Origin: Phoronis australis
Lineage: Eukaryota; Animalia; Phoronida
NCBI GenBank assembly: GCA_002633005.1
Contig: NMRA01000110.1
Span: 771,786 to 835,785 of the forward strand
Reading direction: 5' to 3'
Length of the DNA stretch: 64,000 bases
The notes under the pieces were generated by a model. The model worked only from the letters and a program-made list of their open reading frames with translations, ran no database searches and was not told where the DNA came from. The number at the start of each line of letters is the position of its first letter. Position 1 is the first letter of the stretch. Below, in pieces: positions 6,877 through 34,619 of this stretch. Position numbers and translations under genes: made by a program.

Positions 6877-9233
6877 TGGCCTGTTGTGCGTGGCGTCATT
6901 TTATCATCTTAGTAAAACGCACTTTCTCACATTTCAGTTCGAGTGAGGCACGTGTTGTAAAGATTGTGCGCTGTTCTTTATTTTCAATACCAAAATTCTA
7001 TTCACGATGTCAATAACATTATCTTATTTCTACCATATTAAATAACTGTGATCATAGTGTTCTCAAGTGTACAATTAACATTTTTCTAACTTCAAATAGT
7101 CCCATTAATGCAATATGTCAAGTTTGCTAGATTTTGGTATTCTAATTGAAATTATTCAGACTATTGATTAAAGGGTAAATTCATGGATTAAACTGTGATT
7201 ACTTAGAGTTCGTTTCAATTGAAATTGTCACTTTTAACTTAGGCGGATTTAGAGGGGAGGGGCAGGGGCCCCCTCTTGACTGCCGCCAAAAAATAAAACA
7301 GCAAGAGCGTGAGGAAATATTGAGTATATCAATTAACCCTAAAAAAGCTCTTTAGATATTTCAGAGTTCAACTTTCTTCAGATAAATGTAGCTTTTCAGA
7401 TTTTAGGTGTGCTCCCTACAACAGAATCTACAAAAGAGTAGGAAACAACCAGATGACCACCTGGGAGATTATTACTTTTAAGGCCAGGGGATGCTTTGAT
7501 TTGCAGTTATAAGAATCAAACACAAGTGCGATTTTATCGCTGATCTATAGACTTAGAGACGGTAAATTCTATCGGACTTTGCCACCATTTCCTATCATAG
7601 CATGGACATCATTTCGCGTTACTTTTTTGCCATCATCTGAGCCTCTTCTGTGTATGTGATAAGATCTCCTTCAGAAAGAATTACGTTTTACGTAGGCAAA
7701 CTGTTGTTTACAGCTTGGTATATTTACATTTTGTTGTCCTCAATCCACTAACTACAGAAATATATCAACTAACCTGGGTGATAATGTCTAATGGAACAGG
7801 CAGTGACAAAACACAAAATGAATTACCAGTTAGTGATTGCAGTTGATGTTAAGTAAACTTAATTGAAGAGCATTTACTTATAGGTACCCTGAGTACATGC
7901 AAAGCTATTTTCTCTTCTCTGAATGAGCTTTAATGTGTTGGAGGAGTATTTTGGTGCTGTCTTGGGACTAAAGTTTCCTGCCTATTTACCCTGGTTATAC
8001 ATGTATCTCCACTGTCACATATAAATCAGTCTCAGTCCCTATCTGAAGTGGTTGTAGGGCACAACCCACACACAATTACGACATATAACTCAACTGTGTA
8101 TTTGACCTGTTCATGTCAATGTTGTTAACCAAGCATATAAGGAGCGTTTGACTGAAGACTGAACATGTATAGCCAAAACATAGCCTGGGATCGAACACAA
8201 TGATGATGGTAGCAAGAAAACGCTGGAAAGTCGCAAATGGATTTCAGCTGTCGTTTTTATTAGTTGGGCACTTATTTTTTATATTATCCTCATGAATGAG
8301 CTAGGTTGCATTCTAACAAGAAAAAAGAATAGTTTATAAAACTGTGACATCAGCATATTTCTAAGGTGTAAAGTCGGTTTCTTTTTGGGATTCAGATTGT
8401 TACTATTTATACTTGTACGAAAATGGAGAATGGGTTTACTTTGGTCAAATTCGATGTACCTTTTACACATTCAAATGAAAAACTATGAATAATGGATAAA
8501 CAAGATTGCTTGGTTAATAATGTCTAAGATTCTCTTGACAACTGTCTACAACTTGATAAAAAATCTGCCATTATTTCGTGTCTTGTTCTACTCACTGGAT
8601 TTTACTTAAATGAATGTAAAACTATTATATCCAACTGTTATGAAAAAATCATGAAGTTCTCAAAAGTGTATGAATGAAACTGAAAAGCTTGAAATAAACC
8701 ACCAAAGTGTGTCACTGAAAATTACCTTTGTATCTTAGTCCACCTTCACATCAACTTATTATTTTGTAAAATTATAAATATTGGGTGTAGAAAAAATCGA
8801 TGTCATGTCATACACTGTTTGACCCATCGGTATAGTACCATGACGATATCAGGTTCACGTAGATTAAACGGCGCAAGAAACCACAGGATACAGTTGCAAA
8901 ATTTGTCACATATTGGTCCAGGTCGTTGTCACTGATCTCAAACCTACGTCGGAGTCATTCGTCCAGTGTGTAAACACTTTGGCCACATCTCAAAAGAGAA
9001 TAAAGACACAGTAACGAAAAAGAGTATTGCTGCAAAGAAATTGACGAAGGCAGAAAAACATTCTTTAAGAGAATAAAGCTAGTAGAACAAAAACTATAAT
9101 CAGAAGCAAAATATGAGTACTTTGCGAGAAAAATCGTGTAGTTAATGATTTCCAACGAAATATGTGTTTTGAATTGGTCTAAAAATTTGACACTGATATA
9201 GCATAAAGTATTATAGCTTTATTCACACTGAGT

Positions 9234-12133
9234 CTACAAAACTACAACACCAATCGATAACAAATCCAAAATACAAAGCAAGGCCCTCAAGTTCCGCTGA
9301 ATGAAATTGTACCACGAAGGCATAATGCAGAGGTTAGAAAGCCCAGTGGGTCATTTGTGGAACACCATGATTCGTGAACCAAAAAAAAAATTAAAAATCC
9401 CAGATATATAGCAAATTTTTAAATTCTGTAAGAATAGTTGAGTATGCCTCTGGCCAAGTGTGCCACGATAATTTTGTCATTGTATTGGCATTATTATACG
9501 TTCGTTCGAGTTCATGATTGCCTGGATCATTAGTTAGTGCATTGAATAAGTAGTATTTCGCTAACTCATATCTCTTCGTAAAAAAGTAACTATACCCTAT
9601 ACCTTCAAAAATTAAACTTTTACATTGGGATGTCAGGAAGAGATATTTCGTGCCTGGCTGACAACCTTTTGTGGCACAAATCCTCCTTGAAAGTTTCATG
9701 AAATCGTTTCTAATTGTACTTGATCGTATAAGCTTCGGAGCCGGTAAACTGTTTTCATCATTTAGTTCATGAAGTGTTAAGTTCAGTAACTCCACTGAGT
9801 ACTTTAGAGAATCATCGAAATTTTGTTCATCATGGTAAATTTTTGCCATGACTTTTAACGTTTGTTTAAGGACAAGAAAGTCGGCTCTGTCATTACGCTA
9901 AATGCAGGGATACAATTTATCTCGTGACCAATGAAGATATCGCAATATAACACCATTTCTTTCTCTTCCGTTTGTAGAACGAGTCTCGGTTATCATCTGG
10001 GCTATATCAAGAGTTGGACAAACCATTTCCACCGACGACACAAGAACATCAGAATGCAACGATAATGCTTTGTCGACGTCTTCTAACAAAAAACTAAGGA
10101 GCATAATCTGTCGGGATATTAGGGTAAGACGAATTTCTGTGTATGGAAAATCTGCTTCGGGGAACAAACATATTAATGTTAGCATCCTCATCGCTTGTAA
10201 TAGTTAGTCATATTGCCTTTCACTGAACTCTGAAGGTGATTCAGGGAGCTTGCTTTTGAGTTCTTCATACCACGCATAGATACAAACATCCATTTCACTT
10301 ATTTTTACAATCTTGGGGGAAAGACATCTCGTGAGCTCGTGGTAACCCAGGCTTGGACCTACCGTGGCTATGTTCACCAAACACAGGAAAGTGTACGGAT
10401 CAGTGACGTCATAGGAAATTTGCTTTTCTTGATCGTAAAGGTATCCACAGAAAACCCCACAACCCTGATGCTTTCTTGTTTTGGCGGCCCATGTGTTCTC
10501 AAGTTGCAGGACAAACTTAAGGGCATTTTCGAACGATAGCAGTCGCATCTCTATTAAACCTTCTATGTATTGGCTGCAGATATAGAAACGTACAAACGCG
10601 GTTATGAATCGAAAATTCTTATAATATGTAGTTGATGAAAGGGACGATTGTACCGAAATATCTAAAGAGCAACAGTTTGCTTTCTTGAACGAACGATGCC
10701 TTTTTTGGTCGAGGCCAGACGTCCTGTGGTTGCACGCTCTTGAGTTCATTTTGCTGCGACTTATGGGTGTACATCACAAGGCGTAAATGTTTTACTATGG
10801 ATATTGCAACTTCTAAGTTGTGTGCGGATTGCTCAGCAATAATTCCCTCTGTGACCATTTCATCCAAAATGTCCCACGGAGTACTGCTGTTTAGAAAATA
10901 AACAGTTTTAAGCAAACTGATTACAAGGCTGGGTAACCTGAACATCCCTTCTTTAATGTCGGAGACATCCCCGTCACCAACGAAACTCAGGTGTGGTAAA
11001 TATCTTTTAACCACGTTCGTCATGCCATGGTGCGCTTTAGACCTCGCTGCTGTCCGTTTCGTCAGTTTTCGTCTATTGGACTTTAACTCTTTAATTAAAC
11101 TATTCGCCCCTTTGCTTCCACCGATTTTGACGACAGTTTTCGTCTATTGGACTTAAATTCTTCAATCAGTCTATCCGCTCCTTTTCTCCCGCCAATTTTA
11201 ATTACAGATGCTAACATGCTATCAATATCATAACCTTCCTTCAGAGCTGTATTGTATTCACAGAGCTGCGCCATATATTGAGGTGTTCTGAGTTAACTCT
11301 ATTCCTTTCCTCATTGGTTTATCAGGACGACCAAGCGGTGTGTGGCAGGCATGTGGCGCTGTCGAACTGGAAACCACGGGGGGTCATTACATCTTTGAAC
11401 CAGTTTCCTCCAGGTTTGTCGTTGTCGTTCAGTGATTTGATTTGCATAGGTTTCAAAACAGTTTCTCTTAAATTCAAAACAAATAAATTCGCCATTCCCA
11501 CCAAATTCCTAAAATATTCAATGTTACTTTCATTTTCAACCAGAATGCACCACTCAATATCGGAATACGTTGTCGTTTCACCTCTAGCCAGAGAGCCTAA
11601 CCCTAAAACTGCAAACTGTTGAGGAGGTGTTCCCAGTATCCGTATTGATGTAAAAATCAGACTCCAGAAAAAGTTTCTCACCTTGTGACTAACGTCTTTG
11701 AAAAATTGCCTTGTCTCACGAACGTATTCTTTTTCAGTGTCTATTCGCTTGTTGTCTGACCGATTTGCATTAAATTTAGCCTGAATTTCTGCCATTAGCA
11801 CGTTCGCGCTTTGAGACGTCGTCTCTCTGATATTAGTTAGATTAAATCGAACGTTGGAAATGTCATTAAAAGGTGTTTTTTCGCATTTTAGTAACAGTAT
11901 CTCGCAAAAGGTAACTTCATTTCTTTTGATTACCACTTCATTATTTAATATTCTTTGATCGCTTGGTTCGCAAAATAGCGGCATTGTAGAGCGCAAATGC
12001 TTTAGTGAAATCGCCACGGATCTTGGTCATCGTACCCCTCTCTGCATAAATGTCACCCATTTTTCAGCAGCCTACTGTCCAAATCGTCTCTCGATCCATT
12101 GAAGAGAGTCTCAGCAAGGAGTTCTTTTTCCAT
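9234..12133 (-). pseudogene. Pseudogenised paralog of the nucleotidyltransferase-TPR-TM gene at 27840-30860
   Basis: ORF pieces 11322-12017, 10619-11023, 10204-10749, 9898-10191 and 9391-9849 align in order to the intact copy, with the same FAVLGLGSLARGETTTYSDIEWCILVE motif. Lesions: frameshift near 11945, 5-bp deletion near 11361, 71-bp duplication at 11063-11204, stop plus deletion near 10590-10621, stops at 10204 and 9898, frame break near the A-run 9381-9390. ATG in good context (gcgATGg) at 12133. Hydrophobic tail LRALLCILDLLSIGVVVL* ends at 9234, with AATAAA on the minus strand at 9218-9223. Confidence 0.9.
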
Positions 12134-13429
12134 CGCCAGGTCTGTCAGCCGCTTCTCTACAAAACGTTGTCAGTCCATCAATAGATAACTTGCACAAAAA
12201 TGTGTTTCACATCAATTTATTCATTTTATACCGAATAATGTTTTAGCCGAAGAAATAATTCCTCCTGTGAATTATAATCTATGTTATTCAACAACACAAA
12301 ATACGTCCCAAAAATTATTCCGTCTCTAGGCAGATCATTATGGGAATTGAGAGGTACAGAAAGACTAAAAAGTAATTTATTTTGATAAGATTAACCAGTT
12401 ATTTCAAGGCTGATTGTGATATCAACTGCAGACAGTATATCTATCCCTACAGATCTTTAAATTGGCTTTGATAGCACAAACTAATTTCTGTCATATCAAG
12501 GATAATTTAAAGACGAGTTTATCACAATTAATCGAACTATTTTGCGATTCCAGTGTTCAGTACATAAATAAGGAGAAAGTTTAGAGGTACATGTAGTTTG
12601 AAAACAATAGATTACATTTATTCCAAAATTTTCACAAGGAGGAATGCAATGATTAAGATTTTTTTACTTTGAATCACAACATTACCGAAGATAATAACCA
12701 TGCACTACTTGTCGAAGAATATCAATTGAAGTCATAGGAAAATCACTCACAATATATGCTTCTTAACACTTCAAGGTGGACCACAAAATGCATATTCTTA
12801 CCGGGAGTTTCCTGATGAAACGCCAATGAGTGTTTATTCGGAAAATTATGCCGAATAAAGGCCCATGGGCTTTCATTTAGTTTTACAACTTCTGGTGTCA
12901 AGTGTCCACATAGCAGGACGTTTATTCGGAAAATTTCCTCTTAAAAGCCCACTAAGTGTCAACGTTTAATCACAAGTTCAGTTTTATGGAACATTCATTT
13001 GTAAAAACGAACACAGTGTTGGCGAACTATGAATTTATTAACATAAAAATTAAAAGCTCATATTGAAGTAAAACATGTCAAATCAAAATCGGGAAACCTA
13101 TGACTTTCCGTTTACACGCCCCATTTTACAATCAAACTCCAAGGCGTTTATTTGTGTTACTAAAACGTATATGATTTTTCATTTTCCGAATACATGCCCA
13201 TAGGTTTATCTACGGAAAATCCGTGTGACAGCGAACAATATGTCCCTTTGATGTGGCTTTCTGACATGTTCATACACTAATTTTGAGAGTAGGTGTCGTA
13301 AAAAGAGAGTGTACTTGAAATCGCTAGCACCTAATGCACTTGGAATGTGCGTGGCCTTTAGATTTTGACGAAATTTCACCCATGTAATCAATGTGAGATT
13401 CATGTAGGATTCTCTATATGAACAACTAG

Positions 13430-14790
13430 AGTATGTGTACAATATTTACAACAATGATTATGCAGCACAGACGCATAATAGAGATTTAAGACCTGACATC
13501 TGGTATAAAGTTGACAGTTACAGTTAGTGAGGAGACGTAAGACATGATCAGGTGAGACATAATACCTAAGGGTCCGTGCTTAATCTAATGTAGTTAGGTA
13601 AGCTATTCCAAAACAATGCTCCCTGGCAGGAAATGAAATTATAACCATACGAAAAGGTGTAGACAGTTAACATGTTTTCTGAGCAAAAACTGTAGTGTTT
13701 CAGTATTGATACGAACTTGTGAGACAGTGTCCATTTTGTGAAACATATTTAAACTCTTTAATTGCCAGAGATTTGAGCCCTGCAACTGATAAGGGGAAGT
13801 GAGTCTGTCCTTCTTAAAAATTCAAAGTGAGATGATTCAGTCATCAAATATACATCAAAGAGCCCGATGTTGGATCTTTTCTATGTTTTTTCTCATCTGT
13901 AAATTACTGGTACCAAACAATGATAAAAACATGAGCCTACAAAAGCATGGTATAAGGTTAATTTGCTGTCAGTGTCTAGTAGATATCGAAGTCTGAAAAG
14001 CTGATTTACTTGGCTGGAGACCATCTGACAGATAACGTTCACATGGTTTTATAATTTAAGATGACGGTAAAGATGAAGCCCAAGTAGTTTGACCGAGTTT
14101 TCACATTTAATTCTCAATCAACAACCAATAAAACGTTTTCAGCATCATTTAACATGCCCTTTTTGGAAAAGATAATGGACTTCTAAGTGAGTAAACACTT
14201 TTCAGTGTTTGCTGCCATATTGTTTGCTGTAAATCAACGAGTGGCCACACGAAACGTGGAGCACTCAGATTTTGTCTTGTATTATTTAAAGAGATATTCA
14301 TATCAAGAATAGTGTTAGCCTCAACATAGTTATACATAGAAGAGGTCATTTATAAAATATTAAATAACATAGACCCCAGGACAGACCCTTGGGGAACCCC
14401 TTTAGAGAACTCGGACCATGAGGTGACTGAGCATCCTATTTCGACCCTCGTGTCTATTTGCTAAATAAGATTTTAAAAATGAGCATACATTATCGGAACA
14501 ACCATAACCTCTGAGATTAGCAATCAATAAAGTATATGAGGTACAGTCAAAGGCTTTGGACAGGTCAACTAACATTCAACCTAATATGTGATTTCGGTCC
14601 AAGGCCATGTCTTTAGGCGCAAAACAACATCTCGGTATGAGAAACCCTTTCTAAAAGCGCACAGTTGACTACACAGAATACTGTCAAAGAGAAGTTTCAA
14701 CTAAGCTTTTCAAATATCTGGTTAACAGTGAGCAAAACACTTGAGCTGTCCTGTAACATATTTATCACCTTTTTGAAAACTGGGCTAACT
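13430..14790 (-). mobile_element. Degenerate CR1/L2-like LINE fragment (RT domain to 3' end), copy 1
   Basis: Minus-strand RT remnants: DLSKAFD-like motif (~14545-14570), GVPQGSVLG (ggggttccccaagggtctgtcctgggg, ~14374-14400), SVKLLGLHL. Near-identical to 34620-35950. 3' boundary approximate. Confidence 0.8.
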
Positions 14791-16111
14791 GAGGTTTCAG
14801 TTACCTAATATGAAATAAATCCATGAAATAAATAAATAATTTTTTTTTCCAGAATCCATTCGGGGGTTCGGTCTGACGAGCAAAATCCTGGCTAATTAAT
14901 AGTCATCTGCCCTGCACACCTCTTCCTTAACTCAAAATCCTGGATCCGACCAGGTTTTTCTCAAGTTAATTTTGAAGAAGAATTATTTATTTCCACGTTT
15001 CCCGCCAAATGATGTAATGGGTGGACACATCAGTTGTAATGGGGAACACAGCATATCAGAGGACGAGGACCTGACGATTTTGAGAGAGAACTGGGAAATT
15101 AGTATGCACTGAAGGAGAAGAGAGTGGATACGGGCATAACTCTCAAGCACTTGAAGAACATCAGACAATATTAGCTACACCTTATACGCATAGCTTCCTA
15201 ATAACAATGAAACAGCAAGTGAAATCAGAACATCTTATATCTTTGTAATGCATATTTTTAAAGAATTTTACGTCTCACTTGTGTCTTGACTATGAAACTA
15301 CACTGAACTTGACAACTGCAGCTATACCATTCAAATACATGTACACATATGTTACCTCAAATGATTCATTTTCATCTACTGATCTAGTCATCCCGACAAG
15401 TGTGAGTCAGTTCATGAGTTCAATTCGCTTTTTAAGTTATTTCAACTTTAATCACCATTGCCGTTCATGCTAAAATTGGCCAATCGAGTATAGTATTGAC
15501 TTAGAACCCTATTTGACTCGGGCGGCGTCATGTGCAATAAGACAATGTAATTGGCAATATCCTTTCACCCAAAGTACAGTATTCATGTTCTACATATGTA
15601 CAAATTGTCTACCACGTTGGCTCTTACCTATTTGTATTAATATCACATCTGTAGTACGCCTATCCACTTCACTTTTTAATATTACTCAATCATCAGTTTG
15701 CTATTTACAAAATTTAGCCTAAGTTAATGTAATTAAATTAGTAGTGGCATTTTCATGCCTACCCAAGTGTTTACCCCCCAGTGTTCATTGCTTTTGTCCA
15801 AGCTTACTTAATTACTTTTAGTCTATTCACACGCCTGTATATATTTATTTTTTCTGTTGTTAGATAAGCATGCTAAGTATGAACTGTATGAATCTATTAG
15901 GTTTTAAGTACACACATAACTAATTACAATTGTCCGGGTGTCTGGAAAACAAAAATACCCCATTGCTTTTCGCCTATTACGCTCGACCTCACTTTTCTAC
16001 TAGGAAAACGACCCCGAACTGCGCACTTACGTAATGTTTACTACGCAATTAAGAACTCACGTTGTGATATCAGAGTTATCATTGAGCAAAGCCTTTTGAC
16101 TGCTGCGCACT

Positions 16112-18814
16112 GACATAACCACATTTAACTGGACTGAAATCAAATACTGAGCAAAAGTGACATAAATGTCACAGTCTCAACATTCACTCAGTCACTCAAC
16201 GACATACTAAATAATAATATCCCATCAACCATGAAAACAATAAAAAACAAGAACAAACCGTGGTTTAACAGTAACATTAAGTATGAAATAAATAAAAGAA
16301 ACAAACTGTACAAATCGTTCAGAAAATCAAATAACCCGTGCACGTTTAAGTGCTACAAAGAGCAGTGCAAGAGTGTGGAAAAACTAATTAAAAAGACGAA
16401 ACAAGAGTACAACAATGTCGCCAAAAATTCAAAGGAATATTGGGATATAATAAACAAAATTCGAGGACAGGTAAAGCAATCTTCATAGCCCACCATCCAC
16501 TCAAAGGAATCCAACACTGAGGCGTCATCCAAAGCTGAAAAAGTAAGTCATTTTTAGAATACTTCACCGCCAAGAGTCACGTTGCGCCAACAACAAGCTT
16601 TCCCGAATTCCCAAACAGAACATTACAACACCTCTCTGACATACAAGCCCAATCATCTGAAGTCCGAAAACTACCAGAAAATATTGACGAAAACAAAAAC
16701 GACGGTACCAATCTCATAACCAATAAAATGATCAAGCTAATAGCAAGAGAGCTTACAGTTCCTTTGACAACATTATATAACAAAATACTACAATCTGGAA
16801 AATTTCCTTTGAACTGGAAACTTGGTGTTACGATACCAATACACAAAAAGAACTCCAAAACAGACATTGCCAACTATCGCCCCATAACTCTACTTATACT
16901 TAACACCCTATCCAAAATTTTAGAAGAAATAATTTCTCAACACATGTTTGACCACCTCTCTTCACAAAACCTCATATATCGTCGCCAATTCGGATTTATG
17001 AATGGTAACAGCACTGTGTCTCAACTTACATAAATTGTACACGACATCCACCTCCAGTTTGAGCAAGGGTACAACGTGAGATCCGTATTTTTAGACATTG
17101 CGTCAGCTTTTGATGTCGTTCCCCATGATCTGCTTCTACATAAATTACAATCTTACGGTTTTTCCGGAACTCTCTTCTCACTTTTAAAATCATATCTGGA
17201 ATGTCGAACTTACAAAGTCCGAATAGAGGGTATCTTAGTCACGCTCATCAACGCCAGGTTTCGTAAATGCTGGTGTACCACAGGGTAGCGTACTAGTCCC
17301 CTTACTCTTTTTATTGTACATCAATGATCTTCCAGACACAACAAACCCTAAAACATTCTTATATGCTGATGGCACTGCAATTTTCTACCCATTCTCAAAA
17401 GAGAATCCCCATGACTCATTACAATTGCAAACTGACCTAAACAAACTCTATGACTGGTCTTGAAAATGGATGATGAAATTTAAACCTGAAAAAGTGTTGA
17501 TCTTACATTTTCTAAGTCTGATAATACTCAATTTCAAACAAATCCAATGCTGGAATTATCACTCATTGGGGAAGTTATTCCCAATAAGTTCAAACACAAA
17601 CACCTTGGATTGCTACTAGACCACAAGCTTACATTTACTCCTCACTGTCGTGAACTCGTTCACAAAGTACAAAAATTAATCAATCCAATTAGAATTGTTG
17701 CTCGTCACCTCAACTCCATGCATCTTGAAACTCTGTTCAAGTCTTTTTTTCTTCCACATCTAGATTACTGTGACATTATCTACCAATCGGCAAACGCTGG
17801 CATACTTCAATTATATAGAAAGACTACAATACCAAGCAGTTTTAGCCATAACAGGAGCATACAAAGGATCCAACACAATCAAGGTTCTAAACAGTCTCAA
17901 CTGGAGCAAACTAGCAACCCGTCGTAAACTCCACTTGTCCATGTATGCATTCAAAATCTTAACCAACAAAAACAATTACTCATACAGAATCCTCTTTGAC
18001 TCCTGCAAAAAACCTAACAAGAGACCAGGACTGCGGCAAAGTAATATGCACACCATTCCATCTTCCCTCAGCCAGGCCTTTAGGAAATCTACCATATTAA
18101 CTTGTATTGACAATTGGAATTCCTTACCATCCAAAATAAAAGAAAGCACTTCAATCGTCACTCTAAAAAATAACTTTGCCAGTCCCATTGACATCGTTCC
18201 AACTTCCTCGCATCCACGAAATAATCCTATACAGATCAAGATGCGGCCTATTCCTAAACAACGAGAAATTTAGACATAATTTTAATAATATTTCGCCTCT
18301 GTGTTGCTGTGTAGATGCGCAGACAAATGCTCACGTTTTCTTTGCTTGTGAGGTATGCAAGGAGCAGAGGGTACAGTTTTTCCAGACACTCGAACAATAC
18401 CCCAATATTTATAAAAAATATTCTGAAATTCCTCAAGTGTACAACAAAATTAATTTTTTTCTGTATGGAAATCAAGAACTCAACCCAAATGAAAATAAGG
18501 TTTTATTCGTAATAGTATCAAAATTTCTTTATAATATTAAATCTCTTTGTGTGAGTGGATAGAATTGTACAAATGTATATGAAAATGATTTATTTACTTT
18601 CGTAATCATATGTCATTGTAATCTTAACAGTTTTTTTAATTTATATATTTGTGTAAAATAATTGTATACAGATTTCTTTTTTATGTATTTGTGCAAAATA
18701 GTTATATATAGATTTCTTTGTACTTTTGTAACCCAGATATAATGCCTCTTGGCGCTTTCTGGGTTAGTGTATATTTATTGTATCGAAGATTTCGTAATAA
18801 ACTTTATAAAAAAA
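16112..18814 (+). mobile_element. 5'-truncated, frameshifted CR1/L2-clade LINE (RT), copy 1
   Basis: [63 protein letters not shown]-terminal C-x-C..H..C knuckle; AATAAA at 18796-18801 and a short A tail at 18808-18814. Confidence 0.88.
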
Positions 18815-19419
18815 GAATCAGACAATGAATTCAATTTCCCACGTAGGGAACTTTCGGCGACTTTCAGGCCACCGGCCCATACGGTATGAGCTCGACCCAC
18901 TAGCACAAGAAATGCTGCAGACACTTGGGTATGGTGTAATTAGTTGAAATGCATGTTCTACTTCATCTACCTAATTTTACCTACCCGTTACTTAGGGAAT
19001 TCCCGCAAGTGGTGTAACGAATAGTGGGAATATTTGAATAAGTGGCAATGCGTGTTTGGAGTCTCTAAAATTTGTGAGCCAGTTGATGATGTCATGTACG
19101 TTATCTTCCAGCCCACAGGTGGCGCAGTGATTAGTGGAAATAGTTGAATTAGTTGAAGTGAGCGTTTTGTGTCTCTGAAGTTAAGAACCTGTTGCTGACG
19201 TCTTCGTCCATATATGGAGCATACGTAGCTTGTCATATTTGAATTTGCTTGGAACTTAACGCTGACTTCTTACCTGGGTATGAAGTCACCATTTCATCTT
19301 TCATTGCGCTACAGGCTTTAGCACCTCCTAGTGCCAGTATTTATAAGAGTAAGAAAAAAGTAACATGGCCCGGGGGCGTTGCAATTAGTTGAACTACAGC
19401 TTCCTATTAATCTATTAGT

Positions 19420-21628
19420 AGGTCCCTACCAAAGATCTGCACTTGAAGACTACCAAAGCGAGACACTTTCGAATTATGTTAAAGAGCAAGTTTTCAAACG
19501 CGTCTTATTTGTAGGTCCCTATCTCCTTCGGCGTCAAAGCGTAAGGTCAAAGTCACAGACTTCCCAAAATTTCCAAATTTGATCCTCCGCTGCTATCTTA
19601 TTAGGCTCGCCGGAAGAGTTGACTCACGCATTTGGAGTGAGTAAGTAAAGGGCTATTCTACAAAGAAAGAAGTTTTGAAATCGGAATAAAAAATTTAGGC
19701 GCGAAAAAGTCTAAGAATGACGTTTTTCAAATTTGATCTTGCCGCGTAACCTTTAATAATCCGATCGAACTCAAACTTGGTGGACTGTAATTTCTCACAC
19801 TCTACGTCCATCTGAAAAAGAATTTTTGAAATTGGAGACAAGAAACTTTTTGGCCCCCAAAAAACCCTGTAGGCTTTTTCGGTAGAAAAAAATTGTCTTT
19901 GATTTTAAAGTTTCAGTTTTTATTTGAAAAGCCAATAATCTTTTAAATGGTCAATCCCCAAGTTTCAGCATGATCGACCTACTAATTAAAGTCACTGTGG
20001 CACATCAAAGTGACTCACCCAAGGGTCCTTTTTGGAACCAAAATTATTTGTTTTCCATTTCAAAAATTCTTTAAGCACCTGATAGCCCCCTGTCTCTCCC
20101 CCCTAGAAATGTAAATGTCATACTTTTCCTGGCCTTAGTAAGGCCGGCCAGAAGGGCTCCAAAGTGACCTACCTTATCACAATATCAGAAAAGTTTGTCA
20201 AAATGGCGAGACATTTTCGAATTATGCTAAAATGCAATTTTTCAAACGGGTCTTATGTGTGAGCCCCTATCTCATTCGGAGTCAAGGTAAAAAATTGTCT
20301 TTGATTTTAAAGTTTTTGTTTTATATGAAAAGCCAATCTTTTAAATGGTCCGGCAGTACCCAAGTTTCAGCTTGATCGGCTCACTTATTAAGGTAACAGT
20401 GGCCCAACATGTGACTCACCGAAGGGTCCTTTTTGGAACCAAAATTATTTTGTTTTTGATTTCAAAAATTCTTTATGCACCTAATAGCCCTCTGTCTCTC
20501 CTCTCTAGAAATGTAAGTATCGTACTTTTCCCAGGCTTAGTAAGGGCCTGTGAGGGCCCCAAATCGAACCTCCCCCTGTTCAAAATATCAGAAAATTTGT
20601 TTAAAAAATTAGCTATAGTTTGGGAAGTCATATCCTCATGACCTATGACCTTAAGACTACCAAAGCGAGACATTTTCGAAAGATGAGGTGAAGTGCAAGT
20701 TTTCAAACGCGTCTTATGTGAAGGCCCCTATCTCATTAGGAGTAAAGGTTTAAGGACAAAGTCACAGACTCCCCCCAATTTTCCAAATTTGTTTCACCGC
20801 TTTTACCTTATAAGGGCTCGCCAGAAGTGACAACTAACGCATTTGGAGTGAGTACGTAAAGGGCTATCCAAAAAGAAAGAATTTAGGTGCGAAGAGGTTT
20901 GAAAATGACGTTAATCAACTTTGATCTTGCAGCGTGACCTTATTAATAATCCGATCGAACTCAAACTTGGTGGGCTTTAGTTTCTCAGCACTCTACATCC
21001 ATCTGAAAAAGAATTTTTGAAATTAGAGAGAATTTTTTTGGCCTCTAAAAAAACCACGGACTGTAGGCTTAGGGTTTTTTTCGATCGAAAAACTTTTTGT
21101 CTTTGATTTTAAAGTTTCAGGTTTTATTTGAAAAGCCAATCTTTTAAATGGCCAGTACCCAAGTTTCAGCTTCATCGGCCCACTATTCAAGGTCACAGTG
21201 GCCGACTAAGTGACACACCGGTTAAATGGGCCAGATGCGTATTCTACCCGCAAACCAGCGAATGTCGTCTCGTGCAGCTACTAACTAGCACGGCGGAGCA
21301 AAGCATCAGTCGTCGAAGGTAATAACTAACAGGGGGCAATGAGGAACACCAAGAGGTGGGCAAAAATTCAGTTTCGATGAATTTGCAAATCGTCCAGCAA
21401 GAACTTGACTCCGGCATTTTAGTACACAATTATCACCCAAGAAAGTGTTCACGGCAACGCTAGCATACTTTTTGAAAATTTGGTCGGAGTGTTGGTGAGG
21501 TTGCGCACAGCTAGATGAGTACTTATGTCAATGGACGCACGGACACACGACACACCTACTACATCGCCTTCAACATATCCACAGAATAACAGTAGTTTTG
21601 ACGCTCTCGAGAGCGAAGTTAAAACTAG
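19420..21628 (+). repeat. Array of ~0.45-0.8 kb diverged tandem units ending in a palindrome plus CTAG (Helitron/Helentron-like non-autonomous element), copy 1
   Basis: Unit marker gcgagaca.tttcgaa recurs at ~19458, ~20206 and ~20666; ccaagtttcagc recurs at ~19959, ~20361 and ~21159. Perfect palindrome cgctctcgagagcg (21602-21615) lies 9 nt before CTAG|T (21625-21628). The tandem repeat is certain; the rolling-circle assignment is inference and the 5' end is unknown. Confidence 0.6.
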
Positions 21629-22155
21629 TTCTTTCAGTGTAAATTTTCATTCCAACGAACATCAACATTTCATCGATACGGAGCCTTTGTGTAGGTGGGA
21701 CCTTCAGGTAAAACGAACTACCTCAGTGGGTACATGCCCCGACTGAGGCCAGTGGCCTGTTCCGTGTATTTGCATAGCTCTGTGGACAGGCGTGGGCATT
21801 CGGGATACAAACAACAATAGGAATAATTAATTTGTTCATTTTTAGAAACCATATTCACTCCATAAATATTGGGGTTCGGTATAAAACACATGCAACAATG
21901 GAATTTACAAAATAACCTCGTAACATTTAACCACAAACTTTTGTGAAACAGACAGAAATGGCATAAACAAACTATGGCCATTCCGTCAAAAAGACAAAAC
22001 TGCCTCGCATATTTACATTACTGAGTTAAACAATGAGGTTCCTCTTCACAATGCACAAACTAAACCATGAGGACGAATACAGAAAAAGTGCTTCTAAATG
22101 AATTTTAGGCCCACGTTGTGGCTGAGTAGCAATTGTTACAGGTCATTAAAATAAA

Positions 22156-22169
22156 TGATTGATTGATTA

Positions 22170-22214
<45 letters not shown>
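22156..22214. repeat. (TGAT)n microsatellite
   Basis: About 14 units with one interruption, just beyond the end of duplication copy 1. Confidence 0.95.
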
Positions 22215-25200
22215 CTAACGTTAATGAAACGTTCTTCTAAGTATCTTAAAGTGACATTACCCCGAGCTTTCTTTCGAAAAACAGGTTGATTTAGGTCACA
22301 CGCCGCTGCAAAGTTGGTCTTAAAATTGTTTCATGGTAAAAAAATGTGTGATTTCTGCGCTCGGAAAGAACTGTTCGTTACTTTTAATACCAAGATTATG
22401 AAATTTCCGGTCAACCTGTGACCTGAAATTTTTACTGAATCGGCCTGAAGATATTACGAAGTCTCAGTTCTGCCCGAGCCTACAGATCATTTCTAAACTG
22501 AACAAGGAGGAAAACAAGACCAACTTTATAACGGTAAGTTGCCTCAATTAAAATTTGTTTTCGACTGAAAGTAAGTGATATATGCCACAATTGAAACCAA
22601 AAATCATTGATCAGCATACTCATGTCTAGTGTTACATTGTAAAAATTCAACAAAGAGTGATAGCGATTACTGCCAGAGGTATGCCCCCCCCCCCCCTAAA
22701 TCCGCCTATGGGTAGCTGGGCAAAGGACTTACCATGGGCAATTGGGAGTGACTTAAGCTCGTTCGGGATCACACGCTGCCCAAAGTATCGACGAAACACA
22801 TCACCTCAACATTCTCCTGAGTTCCCCCACTATTTCATTCAAACACAAGGATGTTACAATTTCCCAACATTTAAGCTACTACTAGAAACTAGTTCCAATT
22901 GAAGACATCCCACAAGCAACAGAATGTCCAACTGAGTTAGCACGTCAGTCAGTTGCTGCAAAGGTTCCGCAAGTGCTCCTTAAATGGTTTATTGTTAGTG
23001 GCCACATCAGAACGATACACTGCATTCGCAACACCTCAGATTTCCCTACGCGTGTGAACATAGGATTTCAACTATGTTCCTAACCTTTTCACCGCATTTG
23101 TGGAATTCGTTAGGTCAATGTTTTTGCCATAACCTATTTGTTTTCATTTAAGTAAGGTCTCGGTTTTAAGTTATAATGTAAAAGAACAGGTGGAAAAGCA
23201 TAACTTCTGTGAGTAAAGAAGACACAAATGCATCGGAGGTTCAAGGAATTTTATTGAGTCCCGGCTAACGGTCAATCATTATCCAGTTTAAAGGTCGCAT
23301 GCGAGAAGTTCGCGCATGCACAGATTATGTTCACTTCCAAGAGCCTCCGACATCCAGTACTTTCGTAACTTCAAATTTCCCCTCTGGTGAACTCCATGTG
23401 TGAACTGCTGTCAAACCGCCAACCATTTCCAATTTGAAAGTCACATGACTTCCCGTACGAGATGTGCAGATAACATTCATCTCTGACGGAAATACACGCG
23501 TTCCCTTTTTTCTCCACCATTTCAAATATTTTTGTAGGCTTATTGACTTCACAACCATGAAATTTCAGTAGTAAAACAAGCAATATACATTTATCAATAT
23601 GGATGTAAATACAAAGTGTATTTCTAGAGAAAAACATACACATCCTATTTACACTGGAACACAATATAACTCAGTATATAATCATAGTATCAAACATAAG
23701 CATTCATAGACCTCCAAAAATTGTCTATCACCACACTCAATACAAAAACAAAAAAGACTACATGCAATACATCCCCAGGCTCTTGGGTTTATAAGTCACG
23801 TGATACCAATTAACAGGTTAGCGGTTGTATGAAGTATAATATGGTAATAAACTCTGGGTTGTAGGAAAGAATAGTTGTGAGAAAATACACATTTTAACTA
23901 AATTTTCAACAAGTTCGAATGCTGCCAATGGTAGAGAAAATTCAGAGCTGTTACAAAAGTCCTCGTTACTCAGTACAATTCCATAAATCGCAAATATAAA
24001 CAACACCCTTGACATACCGGATTTCTTAAAATGTATACTTTTTGTCAATTAGAACTTTGAAATTAAACCAAATTGAAACGACTAACCATTTTTCACATTG
24101 TTCACAGAGTGTTCGACACAGCGGGAGAAAGTTAACAAGTGCAGTGAAATGCGCACTTCTAGGCAAAACCCATCGAAACCTGTACAGTATCTTCTATTTT
24201 ACATTGACCTCGTAAGCCAACACTAGTCAGGAACCTGCACGGCACAACTAGCGCAATCTATACAGCTTGTAATATGTGTTGTGCTCGAACTGAAACCACA
24301 TTTGCTCTAAAGGTCACGTCTTTGCGTCAACTTAAAGCTTTGGGGTCAACCAATCGGTCTTGAGACTTGTAAGCTTTCAAACGCCTAGATAATCTGATGG
24401 TTCATGATTGAGTCCCCTTATCGTTAGTAAAAACTGGGGACTGGATTTCAGGGATATCCAAAAACAGCAGTTCATTTTTGCGACCAGGCCTACAAGTCAA
24501 CTTGTCACAGCGTCTCATTTTAGCTTCAACGGTCATAACGCATAATGCAGCTCTTATTTCTTTGCAAATCCAGGAATGACTTCTCATTTGAGTACGGAAC
24601 AATTGATGTTAAGACCACGTGAGTGGTCTAAATCCCAAATGTTCGTTTTTGGAACACAGGTGTGTAATAGCCACTTTTGACCTTCTCAAGTTGCAGAAGA
24701 GTGTGTGTGGTTTACTACTATGACAAAAGTAGTATCTCACTGACATCGCACGCAAGAGCATGCGTACAAATTAGTTCATGTCTCGGAAATCGACGATATT
24801 TCGCGAGTAGGGTCAAAGCAGTTCGGAAAAGCATGTTACAGTGAATATTCATCAATACGGGTCTGCTTCTGAAAAGTGACATTAATTGTATCTTACGCTC
24901 CCATTGCACGTTTCCAAAATTAAACGTTTATTCAAGTAACTATGAGTACATGACAAAATACAAATAGTTTATAGAAATTATCTAAGTAAGTAGGAGACGT
25001 ATTGCGTATTCTCAGAGATTTTAGACTTTGCTCAAGTGAAATTTTTTTTCAGAAATAGTGGTGTGGAGCGCAAGTCCCGATTTCTGGCTTACGGATTAAT
25101 TAAGTCACTTTCCATGTTGTGAAAATGTAACTTAGGTGGATACCGCGTTGCGCATTAAAAGGTTTTCTATGAGACCTGAAAGGAAAGGCCCTTGAATTCC

Positions 25201-25637
25201 CTCGGTTATCGGCTGAAGAAAGTGATGAGTAACAAGCCAGGTTATCAAATGTTTTGACAAAGAGAATGACATCTTGACAAGGGATCATTTGAAACTGCTG
25301 TGATGGCCGACGTTTCCCCATGTCATGCGTTTTTCGTCTGTGTGGAGATTACTGTGACCAGACGGAGTAATTGAATGGTTTCTAGCTGGAGACACAGACA
25401 GCGCTAGTTGTGCCGTCTATGCTACAGTCGTCTTCCACCTAGTCCTGCCTAGACCTCCAAGTTATTTGACAGCCTTATGCCTGCGCACATGCTTGAGTAC
25501 CGAAGACCTACGGGTATTTTAAAATTGTCTTAAGAATAGAAATTTCACATCAATTTCCAGTTCAGGACCTCGAGAGAAATATTCTCATTCGTGATGCACC
25601 CGTTCCTGCTATGAGAACTCATGTGTGAAACTGAACT

Positions 25638-26802
25638 CAGGCTCGTAGCCAGGGAGGGGGGGTTCGGAAAAGGTCCAGTCCCGACGTATCCGTTAAAGAT
25701 GGGACATAGATAGACAACAACAACAAAATTGTTGCAGTTACTGGTACTACTAACTACAATCATCAACTAAGTCATTAATAATTTTGAATTTAGTTCACTT
25801 TGGGCCTTACCCGTGTAACTTCGCCCGAGTGGTGTTTGATGATAAGATCGTGAAGACGATTAGAGAAGGCTTTATGTTATTCATCGTCATTGAACGCGCT
25901 TGGTCGCTACAACATAGGGTAACACGGGAGTCTAGATGTTAATGTCTATACCTTAATATGCTACCGTATATAGCAGCGAGAGAGCTCCCAAGAGGTAGTT
26001 CCGTGTGAACGTCTTAAAATCGACCAAGAAACAAAATAGCAAAAAGTAGGTTTATCTGCTATTTTGATAGTGGCAGAGTACGGTAAAGTGCAGACATTTT
26101 CAAATTTCCGGTCACTTCGGTTGTGGATTGGTGGGTGACATGCATGCGTATACACGTGTGTGCGTTTCCATTCTTTTAAATTCAGTACACGCGGCAATTT
26201 CCCATGCGCATGAAATCCGGGCGTTGTTTGAGCATACATGTAGGTACACCACCTAGTGCATCTAATAACCGAAGTGTCGTTTATTTCTGCAGGTAAAGGG
26301 GGATGTCTGATACACCCAAATCCGAAATTTTAAATCTTTTCGGAGTAGTGAACCTTCGGAATAGTGAACCTTCAGAGAAGTGAACCTTTGGAATACTGGG
26401 CTGTTCCCATTTCCAGCGGTGTAAGCAAGTTATGGTCGATCATGCTTCGATTAAATATTTCAGACCGAGTATGTCTCATTTAAGCACGCCCGGTTTGAAA
26501 GTTTGGCAGGGGGTAATGCGGGGACATTCTCTTTCTGGACCACATTACATCCGAATTTGGGTCCCGTTCTTTGTGAGCAACTGTCAGGGCATCCTCATTT
26601 CTGGTATTACGAATTCCGTCTGATCAGTTGGGAACATAGAGCTGAGAGTCGTCGTTGTGTATATAGATTTCCCTCCCCCTAGTGAAGCTGCGTCAAGGGC
26701 CTTACCGCAAACTCTACAGTGTTGACCTTTGCAAAATATCCGAAAAGGTCCACCGTTCCAGAAATTCGAACCACCCCATGCGCAATGCTGGCTACGGGCC
26801 TG
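25638..26802. mobile_element. Putative non-autonomous TIR element (CAGG termini, hAT-like)
   Basis: caggctcgtagccag (25638) is inverted to ctggctacgggcctg (ends 26802). No clean TSD. Contains a nested 16-bp tandem repeat agtgaaccttcggaat (~26340-26395). Confidence 0.45.
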
Positions 26803-26969
26803 TGAACCTTCAAAGCGAGCTTGACATCCTATGAAGCAGTGTTTGACCCATCGGTAGAGTACCATGACAATATCGGATTCGCGTAGATTAAGCGGTACAA
26901 GAAATCACAGGATACAGTTGCAAAGTACAATTTTTCATACTGCCGGTCCAGGTCGTTGTCACTAATCTT

Positions 26970-27553
26970 TGGTGGGCCGTTCAGGAGAAAGTGTCGCCGT
27001 AAAATTACGCTCGTAATTACGAGCGTAAATTAAATTGAAGGAGTGTCGCCGTACGATTACGCTCGAAAATTAAATGGGGAAAAGTTTCGCCGTAAAATGA
27101 CGCTCGTAATTACAAGCGTAAATTAAATTGCAAAAGTATTGCAGTAAAATTACGCCCGTAAATTAAAAGGGAGATATGTCGCAGTAAATTACGCTCGTAA
27201 AATACTTTAAGAACGTTCCAACTTTAAACCAATCAGTGTTAACCTAACATAAACGACTGTTGCTGGGCAGCTCGTTCTTGCACAGTCGCTGACATTGCAG
27301 CGATTTGATCCGCCATAATTCAACGCTCGTAGCGTACTAGTAGACATGTAACCCGTCGGTAAATAAGTATTTACATGGGCGCGTGCGACCGTGAGTTGTA
27401 AGAGTTAAACTAAATTACGAGCGTAATTTTACGCCGTAAAGAATTAAAATACGCTCGTAATTTTACAGCGTAATGAACGGTGTAAATAACGGCGCAATGT
27501 AAATAATTACTCTCGTATTTTTCCGGCGACACTTTCCCCCCCAACGCCCATCA
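26970..27553. mobile_element. MITE with subterminal aattacgctcgtaa repeats and ~9-10 bp TSD (Mutator-like)
   Basis: Termini tggtgggccgtt..aaagtgtcgccg / cggcgacacttt..aacgcccatca; flanks cactaatctt (26960-26969) and tacttatctt (27554-27563). The empty site (cactgatctc, ~8930) is present in duplication copy 1. Confidence 0.85.
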
Positions 27554-27839
27554 TACTTATCTTAGCCCTACGTCGGAGTCATTCGTCCAGTATGTAAACA
27601 CTTAGGTCACATATCACATGAGAACAAAGAGTATTGCTGCAAAGAAATTGACGAAGGCAGAAAAAAATTCTTTAAGAGAATAAAGCTACTATAACAAAAA
27701 ACTTTGCGATATAGAAAAAATAGTGTAATTAATGATTTCCAACGACAAATGTGTTTGACTTGGTCTGAAAATTTGACACTGACATAGCATAAAGTATTAG
27801 AGTTTCTGAGTTCCGAATCGCCGGATTTGTAAATTAGAG

Positions 27840-30800
27840 TTATTGTACTGAATAAGTCAAGTCAATTTCGAAATCGCATATGATGAAAGTGAATCTGTAT
27901 CTATGAACAATGAGTGATACGAGGTAAAAAATGGCGAAGATGTTGAAAACAGAGATCAAGATTGCAAATCGCGCCAAATAAGTCATGTAGCAGTAACAAC
28001 GTTTCCTACAAAGATACATGACGGACACTGCGATGGTTATAACAGAACACAGAAGCATAGACAAACACACTGCGGTAAGCTCAACACTATACCTAAGATT
28101 GTCGATTTCTTCTCCTTTGTGTCGGACAAACTTTTTGATCATAGAAAATGTAGTAGATAAATAAATATATCTTTGTCCGAGTTCAGAATTTTCGGGTTCG
28201 TAAATTAGCGCATTAAACATGTAGTGTAACGCTAAATCATATCTCTTCGTAATAATGTAAGATGATGTTATGCCACTAAAAATTACTTTTTTACACTCAG
28301 ATATATTTAAACAGTATTGCACCATATCAAGAGCTATGAAAAAATATTGCAAGGACAGATTGAACTTGCCTGTGACGTAGTCGGCATATGCAACGCGGAT
28401 GTATTTTGTCACAACGCTGTTTTCAAGTGAAAGTTTCTTCTCCAGTTCTGAACCAAACTCTTGGAACTGTGTCGCTATGATGTCTGCTTGACAATCCTTT
28501 GCAGCACTGATGAACTTTGAAAGTTTTATAGAATAGTCTATTGTATTCGAGCGTATTAATTTCCTAGCGGACATACTGTTTTTGTCGTTTAGTTTATTAA
28601 GTGTTAATTTAATTGACTTCAGTAAATACATTCGAGCAGCATCGTAATTCCTTTCTCTTGAGTGAATCAGGTGGATGATATCTAATGTAATCCGAACGAG
28701 ATGGACACTATCATAATCATTACCCAGAATGCACGGGTATAATGTATCAAGTGACCAATGAAGATATCTCAATATAGTAATGTTTCTTCCTCTTCCTTTT
28801 GTAAAACCGATCTCATACAGCATCTGTGTTAGGTCTGTACCAAGAGTTGGGCAAATCGCTTGTAACAATGGCAAAAGAATATCAAAATGCCGCGCTGCTT
28901 TCTCGAAGTCATTGCTATGATACATGTAGTTAAGGAGCGTGTACTGAGCGTCAATTACGGCACCAACAGGTGTTTTCTCACCAGTTGGTCTGGGGAACAA
29001 ATAACCTAACATTCTCGTTTCTTGTAACAGTTGCCGATAATCTCTTTCCCTAAACGTTGATCGCGATTCAAGGAACTGGTATCCGTATACCAGATGTTGT
29101 GTATTGAAAACATTCAACATTTCTTTTATTTGCAGAACCCTCGACGAAAGATCCTTAAAAAGCTCCAGGTAACCCAGAGATCTACTTGCCTCGCACAAGT
29201 TCACCAAACACGACATAGTGTACGGATCAGTGGCGTCATAGAAAATTTGTTTTCCTTTGTAGTAAAAGCTTCCACAGAACACCCCACACTCCTGCTTTAA
29301 AGTTTTGGCGGCCCATGTGTTTTCTAGATGTCGGACTAGCTTGTTAAGAGCATTTTTGAATGACAGTGATCGTATTTCTATTAAACCTTCTATGTATTGG
29401 TTGCAGGTATAGAAACGCTCAAAAGTACAAACGGGACTATAAATAGAAAATTCGTGCAGTATGCAGTTGACGAAAGGGACGACTGTACAGAAATATCTAA
29501 AGAGCAGCAATTTGCTTTCTTGAACGGACGACACCTTTTCTGGTCGAGGCCAGATGTCCTGTGATTTCACGATCATGAGTTCATTTTGCTGCGACATGTT
29601 GGTGTACATTACAAGCCGTAAGTGTGTTACTATGGATATTGCGACTCTTAGATTATGTCCGGATTGTTCTGCCATAATTCTCTCTATGACCATTTCATCC
29701 AAAATTTCCCACGGAGTATTGCTATTTAGAGAGTAAACGGTTTTAAACAAATTGATTACGAGGCTGGGTAACCTGTACATCCCTTGTTTAATGTCGAAGA
29801 CATCCCCATCACCAACGAAACACAGGTGTGGTAAATATCTTTTCACCACCTTCGTCATGTCATGGTGAGCCTTAGACCTCGCTGCTTTCAGTTTCGTTTG
29901 TTTTCGTCTGTTGGATTTAAATTCTTCAATCAGTCTATCCGCCCCGTGGCTCCCGCCAATTTTGACTATTGATGTTAATATGCGATCAATATCATAACCT
30001 TCCTTCAGAGATGTATTATATTCACAAAGTTGTGCCATACGTTGAGGTGTTCTAATTAACTCGATTCCTTTCCTCATTGGTCTATCAGGACGACCAAGCG
30101 GTGTGTGGCAGGCATGTGGCGCTGTGCTATCGAACTGGAAACCGCGGGGAGTTACTGTATCTTTGAACCAGTCTCCTCCGGGTTTGTCGTTGTCGTTCAA
30201 TGATTTGATTTGCATCGATTTCAAAATAGTTTCTCTTAAATTCAAAACAAATAAATGAACCATTCCCACTAAATTCCTAAAATATTCAATGTTGTTTTCA
30301 TCTTCAACCAGTATGCACCACTCAATGTCGGAATACGTTGTCGTTTCACCTCTAGCCAGAGAACCTAACCCTAAAACTGCAAACTGTTGAGGAGGTGTTC
30401 CCAGTATCCTTATTGATGTAAAAATCAAACTCCAGAAAAAGGTTCTCACCTTTTGACTAACGTCTTCGAACAATTGCCTTGTCTCACGAACGTATTCTTT
30501 TTCAATGTCTATTCGCTCGTTGTCTGACAGATTTGCACTAAATTTAGCCTGAATTTCATGCATCAACACGTTCGCGCTGCGAGACGTCGTCTCTCTAATA
30601 TTAGTTAGATGATATCGAACTTTGGAAATGTAATTTAAAGGTGTTTTTTCACATTTTAGAAACAGCATCTCGCAAAAGGCAACTTCATTTCTTTTTACGA
30701 CCTCTTTGATTTTTTCAGTGGCCTTTGATCGCTTGGTTCGCAAAATAGCGGCATTGTAGAGCGCAGATGCTTTAATGAAATCGCCACGGAGCTTTGTCAA

Positions 30801-33800: not shown

Positions 33801-34619
33801 CTACAACTTGTGGTCACAGCCCACTTCTATCATGCAAAAATTCATAAGGTAGATTTAATTTAATGACTTCTTAATCAAATTGAAGAAGAATCACATACTA
33901 AAGTAAAAAAAATTATTACTGTGCTAATTAAGTTGTTCCAGATGATGATACATTGCATATCTTAACATATTATAATAAGAACTTTTTCTCTTGCAATACG
34001 ATTCTTACAAAAAGAAAATGACAAGTAACTCGTTTTTTCAAAAACTTTATTGGTGGTATTTGCCTAGTTTTCAATATATTCGCAAGTTGGTCAAAATAGT
34101 TAAAGCAATGCAAGGCCCAGTGTTCAACTGGTAAACAGTAAAAAATGGTTCTGGTTGTTGGGTACGTACACGACGTAATTACGCACAGTCAATCAACATC
34201 AAATTTTGACTAAGTTACAAATATATAGTGCTGGCGAACTATACATTTATTCACATAAAATTTAAAAACTCCTATTTTAGTAAAACATGCCAAAATCGGC
34301 AAACCTATTACTTTCTGTTTGCACGCCACCCTGGCGTTTACTTGTGTTACTAAAACGTAAAAAAAATTATTTTCCGAATACATACCCATAGCCTTATCTA
34401 CGGAAAATCCGGGTAAAAGCGAAGAATATGTCCCTTTGATATGGCTTTCTGACGTGTTCATACACTAATTTTGAGAGTAGGTGTCGTAAAAAGAGAGTGT
34501 ACTTGAAATCGCTAGAACCTAATGCACTTGGAATGTGCGTGGCCTTTAGATTTTGACGAAATTTCGCCCATGTAAACAATGTGAGATTCATTTAGGATTC
34601 TCTATATGAACAACTAGAG

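Follow-up and report, generated by a model that had tools for sequence, protein, structure and literature searches.

A divergence peak between tandem DUF294 nucleotidyltransferase genes of Phoronis australis is consistent with old back halves joined to more recently overwritten enzyme halves

Introduction

Coding sequence that is more diverged than the flanking non-coding DNA, silent sites included, has been described for the primate red and green opsin genes and for the Drosophila block Pre28, where the accessible portions of the reports (PMC3924837, PMC2588116) include an ortholog control and point to a selected site, either known or candidate. A peak of the same kind is described here for two tandem genes, copies A and B, in a stretch of 64,000 nucleotides from the phoronid Phoronis australis (contig NMRA01000110.1, positions 771,786 to 835,785 of the forward strand), called the window throughout. 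Each gene combines a DUF294 nucleotidyltransferase with a TPR-like back half; the comparison is of two sequences, one of them dead, and the peak exceeds 1 kb. We read the pair, at a rough probability of 0.55, as a mosaic of ages.

The closest described animal proteins are the DUF294 (PF03445) and TPR proteins of Branchiostoma and Owenia, which carry the database labels 'Protein-PII uridylyltransferase N-terminal domain-containing', TTC28 or KLC and occur as many paralogs per genome. Copy B resembles them in the order of enzyme and then helical repeats, in an enzyme half that is 30–43% identical to theirs, and in keeping all catalytic positions. Unlike their canonical TPR arrays, its back half has no Pfam TPR match and no detectable homolog, and two membrane helices are predicted behind it. 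This animal family is known but uncharacterised; no paper on it was found in the literature searched, the accessible text of PMC8195603 contains nothing on it, and the supplements of PMC3710099 and PMC8195603, which were outside the search, might list it.

In the NEX2 proteins of Neochlamydia (F-box, OTU, DUF294 and C-terminal TPR, according to the available part of PMC4209131) DUF294 is likewise followed by TPRs in an expanded family. Unlike NEX2, copy B is set in DNA of animal type that holds remnants of retroelements, a likely intron precedes its frame, and no F-box or OTU domain was found in that frame, the 5' exon being outside the scan. Fungal NLRs with variable TPR domains (PMC4986451, in the portion available) also join an enzyme or effector to variable helical repeats. 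The likeness to NLRs drawn in the original prediction survives as an analogy only, in that a Pfam scan of the B open frame (E ≤0.1, 5' exon outside the scan) gave neither a NACHT nor an NB-ARC domain. Copy B further differs from the fungal proteins in that near-identical internal repeats were not found in it and positive selection is unproven. From the Legionella AMPylase DrrA/SidM and Escherichia coli GlnE, finally, copy B is set apart by an identity of only 11–15% in the fold alignment and by being known from sequence and model.

Results

The window has a GC content of 39%, sparse open frames and retroelement remnants. Compared with itself, it contains a direct tandem duplication with side A at 8813–22101 and side B at 26837–46714, a block of 13–20 kb. 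On the minus strand of each side lies one gene in which a TPR-like back half follows a DUF294 nucleotidyltransferase. The parts compared are as follows.

27840–30947, minus strand: copy B, an open frame of 1035 amino acids without a start methionine
29448–30947, minus strand: enzyme half of B (amino acids 1–500), a helical N-terminus, a DUF294 nucleotidyltransferase of pol-beta type and then a helical bundle
28143–29177, minus strand: hypervariable back half of B (amino acids 591–935), a predicted stack of helical hairpins (TPR-like)
27843–28112, minus strand: tail of B, in which two helices (amino acids ∼959–977 and ∼996–1014) are predicted to span the membrane
9391–12169, minus strand: copy A, a gene disrupted by 7 frame-breaking events and by 3 internal stops
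9483–10350, minus strand: back half of A, a single reading frame with 2 stops and ∼45% protein identity to B
9215–9480, minus strand: tail of A, whose sequence shows no relation to that of the B tail
13015–22101, no strand: upstream duplicated block on the A side (partner 34227–46714), largely non-coding with retroelement remnants, 93–96% identical, the neutral yardstick
8813–9212, no strand: shared 3' flank, A copy (partners 26837–26968 and 27557–27798), non-coding between A and B owing to frameshifting indels

The original prediction, made by eye, held that a constant enzyme part, ∼90% identical in nucleotides over a hand-counted 160 bp, is attached to a back half of 35–45% amino acid identity, beside a well-aligned 3' flank. 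Formal alignment agrees. The 46-residue core FFWSLIF...WCILVE is identical in both copies (B amino acids 170–215, nt 30303–30440; A nt 11535–11672), and DNA identity is 90.3% over 1054 aligned bases of the enzyme part, 82.2% over 557 bases of the part next to it, and 66.2% over 678 and 65.5% over 168 bases of the back half. Upstream non-coding DNA is 96.2% (5369 aligned bases), 95.3% (1520) and 93.1% (1690) identical, a divergence (K) of 0.04–0.07, and the 3' flank 92.1% over 227 and 87.3% over 126 bases (K 0.08–0.14). Over amino acids 591–935 of B, protein identity is 44–48%, at the top of the predicted range, and DNA identity 64–65% under three gap settings; both quoted motifs, ILRYLHWS.D.LYPCI and TKRY.LA..Y.FNAL...P.N.EL, are present. 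Within the back half, amino acids 724–741 are identical at 14/17 positions, against 8/34, 4/17 and 3/17 in neighbouring helices. A segment of 53 residues (∼amino acids 822–880 of B) is missing from A, and the tails (A 9215–9480, B 27800–28150) align no better than shuffled sequences, 398 of 500 shuffles scoring as high for DNA and 36 of 500 for protein. The likely intron beside the exon is 68% identical over 130 nt, below the exon itself.

The step in divergence lies well outside what chance gives: the best change point (B 29198, A 10371) has a likelihood ratio of 231, whereas 200 permutations reached at most 23. Block identities, unalignable tails and change point together indicate that divergence in the coding region greatly exceeds that of the non-coding DNA to either side, and the focal region exceeds both flanks with silent sites included. 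The rise is graded rather than a single step, with three silent-site tiers of 11/160 (7%), 40/222 (18%) and 38/120 (32%; p = 0.001 and 0.007).

Codon analysis omitted amino acids 822–880, which cannot be aligned, and used four methods for the ratio of nonsynonymous (dN) to synonymous (dS) divergence, among them NG86, YN00 and maximum likelihood (ML). For amino acids 1–400 dN is 0.078, dS 0.20 and dN/dS 0.38; for 401–590 the values are 0.16, 0.36 and 0.45; for 591–935 they are 0.45, 0.60 and 0.74 (NG86 confidence interval, CI, 0.54–1.01). Only amino acids 591–720 approach a ratio of 1 (0.73–1.46 by method; NG86 CI 0.66–1.65, YN00 1.46, ML 1.22). The diversifying selection that the original prediction had put forward for the back half is therefore unproven, dN/dS not being above 1.

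Silent sites climb together with replacement sites. Among codons for the same residue, silent differences number 37/311 in amino acids 1–400 and 38/120 in 591–935 (p = 4e-6); the excess persists in runs of at least four identical residues (32/262 vs 11/32, p = 0.002) and without CpG sites (19/236 vs 26/98, p = 3e-5). At fourfold sites the back half (14/42) exceeds the 3' flank (34/353, p = 1e-4), and the enzyme half (18/130) exceeds the far 5' flank (205/5369, p = 4e-6) and does not exceed the 3' flank (p = 0.19). A composition effect was ruled out, GC content at third codon positions (GC3) being equal between the copies inside each half. Silent divergence would not climb under positive selection by itself, so the copies appear to be a mosaic of ages and not only the product of faster protein evolution.

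A second indication comes from a short duplication in the enzyme half of A.

11063–11202, minus strand: 71-nt tandem duplication in A, with a B-like upstream unit and an older, silent-site-rich downstream unit (the relic)

Between the two units there are 14 differences in 69 bases, and 8 of these are silent (p = 0.007 against neutral change); the total number of differences has p = 1e-5 at the estimated time since the death of A. The upstream unit is B-like across its first 48 bases, with a proportion of silent differences (pS) of 0.18. The downstream unit, with a pS to B of 0.58, departs from amino acids 1–330 (0.17; p = 4e-4) and is similar to the back half (0.41; p = 0.17). The duplication junction is present in an exact 200-nt contig of a public DNA run, X1. 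The simplest reading of these sequences is that the downstream unit keeps an older state of the enzyme half whereas the other unit was overwritten by B-like sequence, which would be the footprint of a conversion event.

Copy A died recently. Set against the rate of indels in the flank, its 7 frameshifts correspond to a dead time of ∼0.026 substitutions per site (CI 0.01–0.054), which the 3 stops fit. Neutral decay over half the back-half distance predicts 7.5 stops and ∼30 indels; 2 stops and 0 frameshifts are observed, and after the break at 10590 the indels between A and B, as counted in the codon alignment, are in frame in 10/10 cases versus 5/26 in the flank. The 10 in-frame indels and the presence of only two stops indicate that the back halves diverged while they were coding, and the earlier statement that decay alone would not suffice holds.

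In X1, contig depth is a rough guide to presence on one or two haplotypes and does not give copy number, and the contigs cited come from 8 rows of each of two longer tables, with 1471 and 176 further rows. Among the matches listed, a single contig of 1367 nt (depth 42.9) runs through the back half of A, its tail and 85 bases of the 3' flank with 0 differences. Other exact pieces of A have depths of 50.3 and 44.9, flank contigs near B 48 and single-copy neighbours 45–50, and in three contigs the sequence departs from the shared flank at 9213, their consensus then being, by eye, that of B save one base. On this evidence copy A is real and is not an assembly artefact. Summed contig depth at 80% likeness is ∼90–440 over the enzyme half of A (mostly >170), 146–193 over the 3' flank and 55–130 over the back half and tail of A. 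Among the matches listed, a contig of 1411 nt (depth 24.9) fits the back half of A at ∼82–85% in two pieces, one of 1173 nt (depth 25.1) fits B only at 29205–29416, and the tail of B is matched by an exact piece at depth 15.6 and by a piece with 30 differences in 313 nt at depth 21.8. The enzyme half and flank seem to be common to several copies, and the back halves seem to come in types, whether as alleles or as paralogs. It was also observed that in X1 the dead copy A is invariant over 1367 nt (9129–10495) and pieces of the intact copy B (27896–29416) differ by 0, 3 and 10%.

The frame of copy B is likely the main exon, with a 5' exon elsewhere, and is likely preceded by an intron: an intron-end-like CTGAC...TTTTGTAG occurs at ∼30935–30952 on the minus strand, and the same in A (12157–12174). 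An in-frame ATG-GAC-TGA at these positions was rejected as a start since it overlaps the branch-point-like CTGAC and the AG acceptor. No splice joint at the exon start of B was found in the RNA reads. In RNA runs X5–X7 depth over the B frame is below 7, on the expected strand; three X5 reads match B exactly, by eye, near 29416–29445.

The enzyme half scores 25 bits against Pfam DUF294 (cutoff 21), and a fragment of A 24.6. The catalytic motif G195-x11-D207-x-E209 and D273 is kept in 137, 133, 133 and 135 of 137 relatives (G195, S196, D207, E209 and D273 each in 133–137), and its residues agree with the catalytic motif of DrrA and GlnE as given in the accessible part of PMC8097203. From its conservation, D273 would be the third metal ligand. 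In the structure model amino acids 1–550 are confident, the predicted local distance difference test score (pLDDT) of the enzyme half being mostly >85, and weak helical hairpins follow. A Foldseek search with the model gave 6yx5_B, 1v4a and 3k7d as top matches, DrrA and GlnE being best, followed by TPR proteins; by sequence, solved structures gave only weak DrrA matches (E 0.12), and SidM_N scored 20.6, under its cutoff of 27. The helical domain of B lacks the Rx4-6H motif of active HEPN RNases, its conserved R444 having no following His, and the available text of PMC3710099 lists GlnD, GlnE and DUF294_C as without this motif.

Amino acids 1–549 of B have 1532 relatives at E ≤0.001, the best 150 at 27–43% identity. 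Copy B has no close relative in the protein libraries searched and stands on a long branch of its own. The named ones among 30 relatives looked up are from Branchiostoma and Owenia, and one is from JGI/IMG. A scan of prokaryote genomes gave 17 loci (L001–L017), often several per genome, in Holosporaceae, Parachlamydiaceae, Rhabdochlamydiaceae, Rickettsiaceae-labelled, Bacteroidota and uncultured genomes, the lineages identified to family being intracellular; metagenome and viral scans gave 32 and 128 pattern matches and 0 confirmed relatives. Separately, in four relatives (P0007, P0008, P0009 and P0010, three of them Branchiostoma) 3–7 stretches match the enzyme half, which suggests several tandem nucleotidyltransferase modules.

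The back half of B had no homolog among 7997 scored candidates. The 'TPR' half of the original prediction stands as a likely TPR-like helical fold and not as a family assignment: there is no TPR profile match in B, a fragment of A reaches 20 bits for TPR_1 (cutoff 27.8), the Atlas structure leads are all TPR and weak (0.84–0.85), and TPRs follow the enzyme in 32 of 33 relatives scanned. The predicted transmembrane part holds for B alone, whose tail has hydropathy windows of 2.45 and 2.65 (among 164 proteins only B has two such windows >2.4). A membrane tail common to both copies was ruled out, the A tail peaking at 1.5 and being unalignable.

Other features of the window include an insertion of ∼590 nt that splits the 3' flank of B.

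26969–27556, no strand: high-copy repeat in the 3' flank of B, missing from A, with a summed contig depth in the thousands

That the 3' flank is coding in both copies was ruled out by indels of 1, 5, 17 and 25 nt between A and B. In A it is an open frame of ∼90 codons in the direction of the gene (8950–9215, minus strand), frameshifted relative to B, which may be an older coding tail. An unbroken frame of 596 amino acids at 408–2198 (plus strand), 6.6 kb from copy A, has RING, B-box and weak NHL matches and resembles a TRIM gene. The duplicated block contains a remnant resembling a long interspersed nuclear element (LINE) at 39971–42409 (plus strand; partner ∼16138–18562), its 343-residue frame intact in B and broken in A, and a second retroelement remnant lies at ∼44401–45179 (minus strand). 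Nested internal repeats of ∼600 nt with 78–85% identity occur at 19441–21220 and 43279–45823, one set per duplicated block, and a dispersed repeat of ∼600 nt with 90% identity at 36784–37376 and 58128–58701, with partial copies at 38309–38455.

Discussion

The pattern is best accounted for by an old divergence of the TPR-like back halves, at a time when they were functional coding sequence, and by a later overwriting of the enzyme half and both flanks through gene conversion, or unequal recombination, between members of the family. Module swapping, which the original prediction had offered beside diversifying selection, fares better than the latter: a recombination-type history is supported by back-half silent divergence that is about 3-fold higher and by the relic unit in A. 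Conversion tracts were probably kept out of the back half because each type of it would have had a binding specificity of its own. Copy B would be a predicted membrane-anchored enzyme that moves a nucleotide, probably adenosine monophosphate (AMP) as in DrrA and GlnE, to a protein, with the variable helical stack picking its target or trigger. That it acts in defence is a guess from this design and from analogy, and the ligand sensing and allorecognition of the original prediction are likewise conjecture.

Several observations weigh against this account. The ratio dN/dS over amino acids 591–935 is 0.63–0.86 over all gap settings and methods, and the two full sequences are too few for tree-incongruence or site tests. 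The relic, of 69 nt, was noticed post hoc, and its p value rises to 0.015 at the upper bound of the dead time of A; compensating frameshifts could be masked in the count of in-frame indels. The 7 frameshifts of A are confined to the front 59% of the gene (10592–12169, the enzyme half; p = 0.024), with none in the back half, which a mosaic leaves unexplained, although with stops added the front part holds 8 of 10 events (p = 0.15). Expression of B is low, the RNA reads being few and mostly <95% alike, and the back-half model has low confidence, with many blocks of pLDDT <50 and a value of 39 when folded alone. Lastly, of 78 nearest-neighbour pairs of relatives, 76 are more similar in the enzyme than in the back part (medians 0.585 and 0.35); the pairs were drawn from 102 of 137 proteins and are subject to bias from clustering at 50% and from repeat misalignment, two pairs aligning over <30 residues. 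A back half that is fast at the protein level is therefore ordinary in the family and may reflect low constraint on repeats.

This last point leads to the alternative that survives best, though we consider it unlikely: the same mosaic without selection for difference, in which large indels (the 53-residue segment and the exchanged tail), together with weakly constrained repeats, blocked conversion locally and the back halves drifted. The overall dN/dS, the location of the indel and unalignable tail inside the divergence peak, and the family-wide contrast all suit drift of this kind. It does not readily explain a dN of up to 0.45 combined with the sharp contrast between helix 724–741 and its neighbours, a ratio near 1 in amino acids 591–720 where the frame was kept, or the pieces of B-type back half that are ∼10% apart in X1.

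An improbable origin is unequal crossover between two very old balanced alleles of one locus, where the duplication froze an allelic peak and long tandem conversion is not needed. Far flanks that differ by just 4–7%, possibly an allelic level, divergence that falls with distance on the 5' side, and strongly diverged back-half contigs at half depth in X1 are as such an origin predicts, but the 3' side passes from unalignable to 92% identity within a few bases, the intron is less alike than the exon beside it, and A is unchanged over 1367 nt in X1.

We are very doubtful that recombination was absent and that strong positive selection acted on the back half only, after a recent duplication. Such selection would fit a back-half dN that is 5–6 times higher (0.45 vs 0.08) and the YN00 and ML ratios for amino acids 591–720, but not silent divergence that is 2.5–3 times higher and robust to alignment and CpG controls, the excess of the enzyme half over the far flank at fourfold sites, or the relic unit. 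The remaining proposal, that A is a mis-assembled second haplotype or that its back half rotted after gene death, deserves almost no credence, for although A is broken in 10 places and the far flanks are as similar as haplotypes might be, its back half, tail and 3' junction form the exact 1367-nt contig at single-copy depth (43 vs 45–50) and its stops and indels fall far short of those expected from decay.

A mosaic of ages formed by conversion or unequal recombination thus remains the preferred reading. Divergence peaks that conversion leaves behind are already known from some immune and colour-vision genes, and the present one lies in a large uncharacterised animal family; distinctive in B are the degenerate back half, the predicted membrane tail and the possible AMPylase role. 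Animal AMPylases comprise only two classes, Fic and SelO, in the accessible part of a 2021 review (PMC8097203). It is conceivable, if on balance doubtful, that the family represents an unrecognised third class of animal protein AMPylase that endosymbiotic bacteria also possess and that serves as polymorphic receptors in defence or self/non-self discrimination. In these receptors an invariant DrrA-like enzyme would be joined by recombination to TPR-like sensor halves that are old and kept by selection, and that are here tethered to a membrane. A DrrA/GlnE-like enzyme with intact catalytic residues and a fast-changing binding half would be a candidate for that third class, and the B-type protein would be a candidate enzyme-coupled receptor without an NLR core.

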